A stretch of DNA of 56,634 nucleotides, the filler included, from Sluysia triapertura (lineage: Eukaryota), in NCBI GenBank assembly GCA_046118255.1. It is 3 parts of 3 records of this genome, joined end to end, with 100 filler letters (N's around TTAATTAATTAA, not from the genome) between each part and the next. Parts side by side here need not be neighbours in the genome. Positions count along the whole stretch, not along the records: positions 21,673 to 37,311 come from JBJNIA010223132.1; 2 more parts are not named here. The stretch is one strand, 5' to 3'. Of this stretch, positions 27,901 through 28,215 are shown piece after piece. Every line of letters begins with the position of its first letter. The stretch's first letter is position 1. Position numbers and translations under genes: made by a program. Below the pieces are notes generated by a model that saw only the letters and a program-made list of their open reading frames with translations, had not been told where the DNA came from and did no database searches.

Positions 27901-28215
27901 AGGTTCCGTGTAAGAACCTAATTAAATATCTACATAATTATTAAAGGTTCGATTTAAGAACCTCATTAAAATCAATTATCGGTTCGAAGTAAGAACCATA
28001 TTAAAATATCAGTAAAGTAAATTATGAATTATAGAACTAAATATTAGATAAATTGAGATTCCAGAAATTATAAGTTCAAATATTATACCTCCATTTACCT
28101 TAACTAATCTTGTGACAAAAAACCCAACGGCTGGCCCTAACCGGTGAGTCCAGTACGTTGGTGAACTCACGTTAATCTTAAATTAATTTATTTTGATAGA
28201 CACACTTTTCTTACA
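27901..28215 (-). repeat. LTR-like repeat family P, copy A (pseudoknot motif + hairpin array)
   Basis: Minus strand starts TGTAAGAAAAGTGTG (28215); core motif 28124-28175; GGTTC-N7-GAACC hairpins 27901-27997. Homologous to 37418-37673, 54477-54860 and 33700-33880. Confidence 0.6.

Follow-up and report, generated by a model that had tools for sequence, protein, structure and literature searches.

A conserved strand-biased hairpin in a dispersed high-copy repeat of Sluysia triapertura, tentatively placed at a retroelement end

Introduction

Structured islands that are kept within diverged transposon ends usually mark a signal that is read by the mobilising enzyme. The locus examined here raises the question whether a GC-rich motif of about 55 bases in Sluysia triapertura is such an island, which fold it adopts and to which kind of element it belongs. 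The motif lies in a window of 56,634 nt (the whole stretch of DNA that was analysed, filler included; assembly GCA_046118255.1), in which a sequence-only reading had described four dispersed copies (here A to D) of a pseudoknot with a 9-bp stem 1 and a 6-bp stem 2, and had proposed an undescribed structured RNA of a mobile element. With its approximately 10^4 natural variants the motif would provide a ready covariation data set, and its small size makes it an inexpensive substrate for probing and cleavage assays.

Results

Setting of the window

The window has a GC content of 21-31% and the eukaryotic content of an AT-rich animal. A protein search with the exons of the NME8-like gene (Table 1) returned bird and rodent matches only, at 35-43%, and two further protein searches of the window gave no match. 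Besides the SINE copies, of which the first two form an inverted pair and the third lies immediately upstream of copy D, the window holds numerous (TAT)n arrays, two transposase fragments recognised by eye, and broken pieces of a gypsy-like reverse transcriptase and protease. The broken gypsy-like remnant is located at 40564-40923 and 42066-42377 (+); a weak match to a Monjiviricetes fusion protein in the same region (E 3e-4) stayed below the cut-off, and an integrase-like frame was recognised by eye nearby. Isolated gene-like pieces were seen at 26556-27190 (+), 24988-25668 (-), 32480-32746 (-) and 38236-38670 (+); UFL1-like fragments, a CCCH zinc-finger ORF, an apextrin C-terminal exon and a degenerate homeodomain-like ORF (Atlas score 0.84, a lead only) are the identities among these four, which are possibly captured or processed fragments. 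Two long intronless ORFs at 46470-47306 (+), which contains a 144-nt tandem duplication, and 45229-46050 (+) had no family match.

Table 1 Copies of the motif, associated signals and neighbouring features in the window. Signed numbers are offsets from the copy.
Feature	Position	Strand	Remark
Copy A, core (flagged locus)	28118..28170	-	G1 = 28170; fold same as in copy C
Copy B, core	37573..37627	-	start 37627; H2 and H3 all Watson-Crick
Copy C, core	54557..54609	+	G1 = 54557
Copy C, 5' strand	54557-62	+	followed by a 3-nt linker
Copy C, helix H2	54566-71/54598-603	+	6 bp
Copy C, helix H3	54574-77/54593-96	+	4 bp
Copy C, loop	54578-92	+	15 nt; weak apical stem or pairing with the 5' strand possible
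Copy D, core	33741..33797	+	start 33741/33743; diverged subfamily
TG-starting 15-mer, copy A	28201..28215	-	possible left end of the A/B subfamily
TG-starting 15-mer, copy B	37659..37673	-	
AATAAA, copy A	28187..28192	-	-22; candidate poly(A) signal
AATAAA, copy B	37644..37649	-	-22
Two overlapping AATAAA, copy C	54532..54542	+	-25 and -20
GGAGGT, copy A	28087..28092	-	+78
GGAGGT, copy B	37533..37538	-	+89
GGAGGT, copy C	54708..54713	+	+151; present too in the letters of one contig
GGAGGT, copy D	33823..33828	+	+82
Three small palindromic hairpins downstream of A	27902..27997	-	5-6 bp, 7-nt loop
Small hairpin downstream of B	37419..37435	-	like those of A; element enters assembly gap
Second repeated block with two small hairpins, downstream of C	54760..54870	+	
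Small hairpin downstream of D	33931..33950	+	
NME8/TXNDC3-like gene exons	1521-15248	+	thioredoxin and several NDK domains
Mariner/Tc1-like transposase fragment	34200-34700	-	by eye; no Pfam hit
Mariner/Tc1-like transposase fragment	36639-37289	+	by eye; no Pfam hit
Short tRNA-derived SINE	124-232	+	(AAT)n-like tail
Short tRNA-derived SINE	332-454	-	(AAT)n-like tail
Short tRNA-derived SINE	33578-33696	+	(AAT)n-like tail

A GC-rich core in four copies

All four copies are real and lie, with the sequences that had been quoted, where they had been placed (Table 1). A strict descriptor of the fold as first drawn, with its 9-bp and 6-bp stems, was scanned across the window and matched five sites, among which A to C were the sole GC-rich ones (17-18 G+C in the stems vs 4 and 8 in the other two), and a 27-mer with up to four mismatches occurred three times in the window vs 0 times in 20 Markov shuffles; from both results we conclude that the repeat is real. 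Its core is conserved far better than its flanks, just as had been observed, the AT-rich bodies of roughly 250-350 nt being diverged. The window holds no fifth copy, the next covariance-model matches having E values of 0.8 or worse. The hairpin loop contains TTAGGG in copies C (54587-54592) and A (28135-28140), and B and D differ there.

Exact pattern scans gave 0 and 2 matches in viral contigs, 0 and 8 in metagenome contigs and 0 in prokaryote genomes. We regard all 10 matches, which are to a 19-mer, as chance, since their surroundings have 42-65% GC (8 measured) or are visibly GC-rich and the likeness ends after the seed. In the literature searched, which left aside supplements, subscription journals, Repbase and Dfam, there was no account of the motif, and 15-nt motif words sought literally led to no related paper; as repeat libraries and supplements lie outside this search, the repeat may already be catalogued.

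The size of the family was approached with one public sequencing run of unrecorded kind (X1), which contains 54% of the words of a nearby stretch and covers only part of the window, the downstream flank of D being uncovered. At 80% likeness, 2398 of its contigs aligned to copy C; their summed depth is 6,258 in the bin before the core, peaks at 285,413 on the core itself and is down to 9,251 in the first bin that lies entirely beyond it. Set against the depth of 10-25 of single contigs, this peak puts the family at roughly 10^4 copies, the summed depth itself not being a copy number.

The conserved fold is very probably a nested hairpin

The alignment of A to C pairs fully at all 15 positions of the pseudoknot, and stem 1 switches, as had been claimed, only between Watson-Crick and G-U pairs. 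These switches amount to three single transitions, and none of the 15 pairs shows a double change; the compensatory changes that the sequence-only reading had attributed to the motif are thus absent from stem 1 (0 of 9 pairs changed on both sides in A-C). Pair statistics on these three sequences were not significant, 351 of 500 shuffles scoring as high. The minimum-energy fold of A, C and D is nested: stem 2 (here H2, 6 bp) leads through a small internal loop of 2x1 or 2x2 nt into a 4-bp helix H3, and RNAalifold returned H2 and H3 plus three apical pairs from A-C alone. The spacer of 14-16 nt that had been drawn as a free loop contains the 3' strand of H3, and because H3 uses the same bases as the inner three pairs of stem 1, the two are mutually exclusive.

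Compensatory changes do occur in copy D. Relative to A-C, 4 of the 10 pairs of H2 and H3 have both bases altered: in H2 there are two double changes and one lost pair, which bears out the earlier claim for stem 2 with 5 of 6 pairs kept, and in H3 there are two double changes and one single change with no pair lost. The first pair of H3 is C-G in A, U-A in B, U-G in C and C-G in D. Covariance models were built from A-C only, for H2+H3, for the whole nested fold or for stem 1, and scanned over the window. D was recovered at full length by the H2+H3 model (21.7 bits, E 0.0014) and also by the model of the whole nested fold (17.9 bits), and the stem-1 model found only a 13-nt piece of it (7.3 bits), a comparison tilted toward the nested fold in that D's fold had been seen beforehand and the stem-1 model lacked stem 2.

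The variants listed for run X1, which are depth-weighted, unphased and from this single run, include 54576 G>A (41% of depth) and, at its H3 partner, 54594 C>T (35%), so that this pair would be open in as little as 6% of depth if the two are coupled vs 27% if they are independent. As no change was listed at the pseudoknot partner of 54576, the pair 54564-54576 is broken in at least 41% of depth. The remaining three of the four variable stem-1 positions retain stem-1 pairing and are unpaired in the nested fold. No change was listed within the loop TTAGGG.

We therefore regard the nested hairpin of H2 and H3 (6 + 4 bp) as very probably the conserved fold. That the pseudoknot as drawn should be the conserved functional fold is highly improbable: complete pairing in A-C, the three variable positions that stay paired and the predicted ensemble of copy B, which favours the stem-1 hairpin (p about 1.0) and not H2/H3, speak for it, but stem 1 has no double change and one pair broken in much of the depth, its inner part is lost in the D subfamily, and the covarying H3 is left unexplained. 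An equally low probability attaches to a fold without function, whose likeness would come from a recent burst of amplification and from a GC-rich stretch decaying more slowly; most positions are indeed invariant by descent and the three-row tests lack significance, but the double changes between subfamilies fall in sequence whose flanks are barely alignable.

Two further pairings of the 5' strand are possible. Its six bases can pair with the start of the loop, as in the outer part of stem 1 (6 bp in A-C, 4 bp in D), which is compatible with intact H2 and H3 and would give a shorter, classical H-type pseudoknot as a possible second conformer. Alternatively they pair below H2 in a G-U-rich basal stem, the loop then closing a weak apical stem; the modelled probability of this basal stem is at most 0.1 in A-C, whereas in D five of its pairs reach 0.75-0.97. 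A two-state RNA in which the outer pairings switch is possible.

Two subfamilies and the ends of the element

The family splits into at least two subfamilies. X1 contained 47 contigs matching D, nearly all over 33742-33803 only, and 93% of them continue into unlike DNA, which places D among a few dozen loci that form a second subfamily. Its stem 1 had been described as decayed; the inner half is indeed absent, but D belongs to a subfamily of its own and is not simply a decayed copy. Five contigs carry 33754 T>C, and in six contigs a loose end behind 33786 starts with letters that would supply the matching change and repair the mismatch of D; judged from these unphased letters, D-type relatives may have all 6 bp of H2.

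A TG-starting end inside which the motif would sit had been proposed for the copies in general. It is shared by A and B, whose 15-mers at -45/-46 are 13/15 identical (reached by 9 of 2000 shuffles), but not by C and D. A and B also share downstream sequence (score 107.5 vs 65 +/- 6), all other pairs being at or near background. Among 14 candidate target-site duplications of 5-6 bp, none was consistent between copies, the end of B lying in a gap; the N runs flanking the TTAATTAATTAA linker at 37350-37412 are an assembly artefact that hides it. The same 5-6 bp pairs yielded no TG..CA ends with a consistent duplication, which in a solo LTR would measure 4-6 bp. No partner inverted repeat of at least 8 nt was found downstream of any copy, nor, within 1.5 kb, an 18-nt one with 5 mismatches allowed, and a self-BLAST of the window showed no tandem partner of any copy. 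A and B as an LTR pair (61% identical) and D and B as terminal inverted repeats (different subfamilies) were both rejected.

In six-frame translations that read through X, 24 in all and covering about 2.7-3.6 kb per copy, there were no relevant families of mobile-element proteins, a weak test given the decayed sequence and with the downstream side of B beyond the gap left out. Neither reverse transcriptase, GIY-YIG, integrase or Rep/Hel nor an autonomous partner was seen in the decayed sequence of the four loci.

Candidate signals on one strand

H2 and H3 are more stable on the given strand than on the opposite one in all four copies (-12.1/-11.9, -10.4/-9.6, -10.3/-7.5 and -5.7/+1.0 kcal/mol), the margin being small in A and B. 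On this strand AATAAA stands at -20 to -25 in three copies and is absent in D (background 7% per 24 nt), and it recurred at -19 in two loose-end consensuses of X1 read by hand (agreement 0.6). The core of A-C starts with the perfect 5' splice-site word GTGAGT. Downstream of every copy follows GGAGGT (background 1% per 110 nt), by its letters a putative splice donor, AG/GT, and at +170 to +290 small hairpins. The second repeated block downstream of C reaches an X1 depth of up to 12,747, and 7 contigs link it to the core with spacing that varies.

Comparison with known RNA classes

The motif, which could not be assigned to any familiar class, has no match in Rfam. A scan of the whole window at E up to 1 gave only the tRNA-like SINE head and a chance mir-279, and local scans at E up to 10 gave weak matches only, of which FopS (E 8.3) overlaps A; among the 2, 2 and 5 matches listed over the three scans there was no ribozyme family. 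In HDV-like ribozymes P3 and L3 must separate the P2 5' strand from the P1 3' strand, and P1.1 is required as well. As had been stated, this core is absent, there being 3-5 nt at the place of P3/L3 in A-C. The motif resembles the HDV-like ribozymes of non-LTR retrotransposon 5' ends in its G start and in admitting a 7-bp P1 and a 6-bp P2 on paper, but differs in having no P1.1, P4 or catalytic-C strand and no Rfam match. Selenocysteine insertion elements (SECIS), which occur in selenoprotein Naiads, follow the pattern RUGA-N11-13-AA-N18-27-GA; none lies in the hairpin, as the only two pattern matches, at -54 of B and +95 of D, fall beyond the core. A frameshift or read-through signal was rejected for want of an ORF and a canonical slippery site, and a spliced-leader RNA was rejected as the 70 nt upstream are not conserved across copies.

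A small self-cleaving ribozyme of an undescribed class, which would define the RNA end of the element, possibly via the shorter pseudoknot, is distinctly unlikely. The likeness of many contigs breaks off right at G1, with 101 loose ends at 54557, all copies could form the outer 5' pairing, and small ribozymes occur as dispersed conserved islands (available parts of PMC7761336 and bioRxiv 10.64898/2026.07.22.740005), among them those in pseudo-LTRs of Penelope-like elements (PLEs) and at LINE 5' ends (PMC7761336). Against it stand the lack of any Rfam ribozyme match, the absence in all four copies (same strand, -300 to +400) of the hammerhead core expected in hammerhead-bearing PLE pseudo-LTRs and non-LTR retrozymes, and unpaired positions that differ between subfamilies. 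The internal loops are likewise unlike the catalytic loop of 5+6 nt with a CA cleavage site that the available part of PMC11620745 gives for minimal twister-sister-like ribozymes. A and B moreover share sequence up to -46, from which it follows that G1 does not mark the end in every copy.

A short Pol III-type stem-bulge RNA (Y-RNA- or sbRNA-like) or a miRNA-like hairpin with SINE-like amplification appears similarly improbable. The length of about 55 nt, the G start and the T-run end would suit it, as would the D-type matches that are limited to the core between unlike flanks and the A-rich loose ends of X1; but no Rfam model of Y RNA, sbRNA, vault RNA or miRNA matched, at least four T follow the stem in A only, and the four copies have neither a poly(A) tail nor a duplication. 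The downstream words common to all four copies also argue against it, since they make the element longer than its 55-nt core.

On the opposite strand, the first 9-12 bases could be read as a tRNA primer-binding site folded onto the U5 end of an LTR element. Over its first 9 nt, copy C agrees at 8/9 with the last 9 nt of the tRNA-like SINE head (189-197), followed by CCA, a match equalled at the fixed end by 206 of 20000 shuffles; 8/9 anywhere in the SINE head is, however, reached by 327 of 1000 shuffles, the second CCA is CCT in D, no CA end of an LTR adjoins, and the strand signals point the other way, which makes this reading very unlikely.

Discussion

The motif acts like a structured cis-signal of a retroelement end and fits no named family that was searched. 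What stood of the initial proposal is a conserved, strand-biased, folded cis-element of a mobile repeat outside all Rfam families; its 9+6-bp pseudoknot did not. Because a small conserved fold sits in diverged AT-rich bodies beside poly(A) and donor words, we tentatively read it as an RNA signal in the end repeat of a retroelement, placed where poly(A) site and 5' start meet, which is quite possible; such a repeat would likely be a Penelope-like pseudo-LTR, otherwise an LTR. An R/U5 position in an LTR would serve equally well, though LTR ends were not found.

In such an end repeat, Pol II would transcribe the element on the given strand, and the hairpin would start at the predicted cleavage site with the splice-site word. 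The H2/H3 hairpin would be bound by the reverse transcriptase complex that the element itself encodes, so that only copies retaining H2 and H3 would be mobilised. The 5' six bases would pair below the hairpin or into the loop and thereby hide or expose the donor, whose exposure would select between 3'-end formation and read-through with splicing. We infer that H2/H3 may be a handle for the element's protein, with the 5' strand gating donor and cleavage site. A bolder version, which we consider unlikely, is a bistable RNA switch or a new small ribozyme that replaces the hammerhead in a hammerhead-less Penelope-like pseudo-LTR, the 5' six bases flipping between basal stem and pseudoknot and setting the RNA ends in the approximately 10^4 copies. 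If the repeat stems from the hammerhead-less Naiads, it bears on what takes the ribozyme's place there; if it is merely a hairpin in a repeat specific to one lineage, its value is limited to that of a useful annotation.

The main rival to an RNA signal is a hairpin of single-stranded DNA at the terminus of a non-autonomous Helitron2/Helentron-type element (HINE), recognised by an HUH Rep, the small downstream hairpins being its internal tandem repeats. We consider it rather unlikely. The sharply bounded conserved core, the variable body and the internal repeats agree with it, H2 and H3 are the minimum-energy core as DNA as well in all four copies, no duplications were found (elements of this type insert in TT without one), and in the available part of PMC5148889 the 5' hairpin of FoHeli2 has a 5-bp stem equal to the middle of stem 1. 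But HINEs have subTIRs of 12-15 bp at both ends (available part of PMC4067079) and the partner inverted repeat is missing here; poly(A)- and donor-like words on one strand are unexpected for a DNA hairpin, and no Rep/Hel match lies near the copies.

These readings can be set against known systems. HIV-1 TAR, the poly(A) hairpin of LTR R-U5 regions and hepadnaviral epsilon are bulged stem-loops beside a poly(A) signal and a splice donor. Our motif is alike as a bulged stem-loop of about 55 nt that adjoins a candidate poly(A) signal and donor, but differs in that no LTR pair, primer-binding site, TG..CA end with duplication or Rfam likeness was found. With Helentron/HINE and Helitron2 termini, as portrayed in the accessible sections of PMC4067079 and PMC5148889, it shares non-coding sequence, high copy number, a terminal hairpin and internal repeats; it has, however, no subTIR or ATIR partner, and its hairpin is far longer than their palindromes of 5-10 bp.

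The Penelope-like comparison draws on excerpts of PMC8557442 and PMC11167929. Of the features of Naiads and other PLEs, no reverse transcriptase or GIY-YIG ORF, partial tandem or inverted arrangement or 30-40 bp tail was seen at the four loci; the motif has no hammerhead, and those excerpts describe no such hairpin. A lizard PLE reverse transcriptase, according to the excerpt of PMC11167929, initiates in an AC-rich stem-loop, and its initiation site marks the insertion end, whereas here homology runs on downstream. What our repeat has in common with the pseudo-LTRs of hammerhead-less Naiads is a dispersed, very high-copy and AT-rich sequence in which a small RNA island is conserved, donor-like words of the kind that would open a 5'-UTR intron, the lack of a clear duplication and an AC-rich stem-loop.
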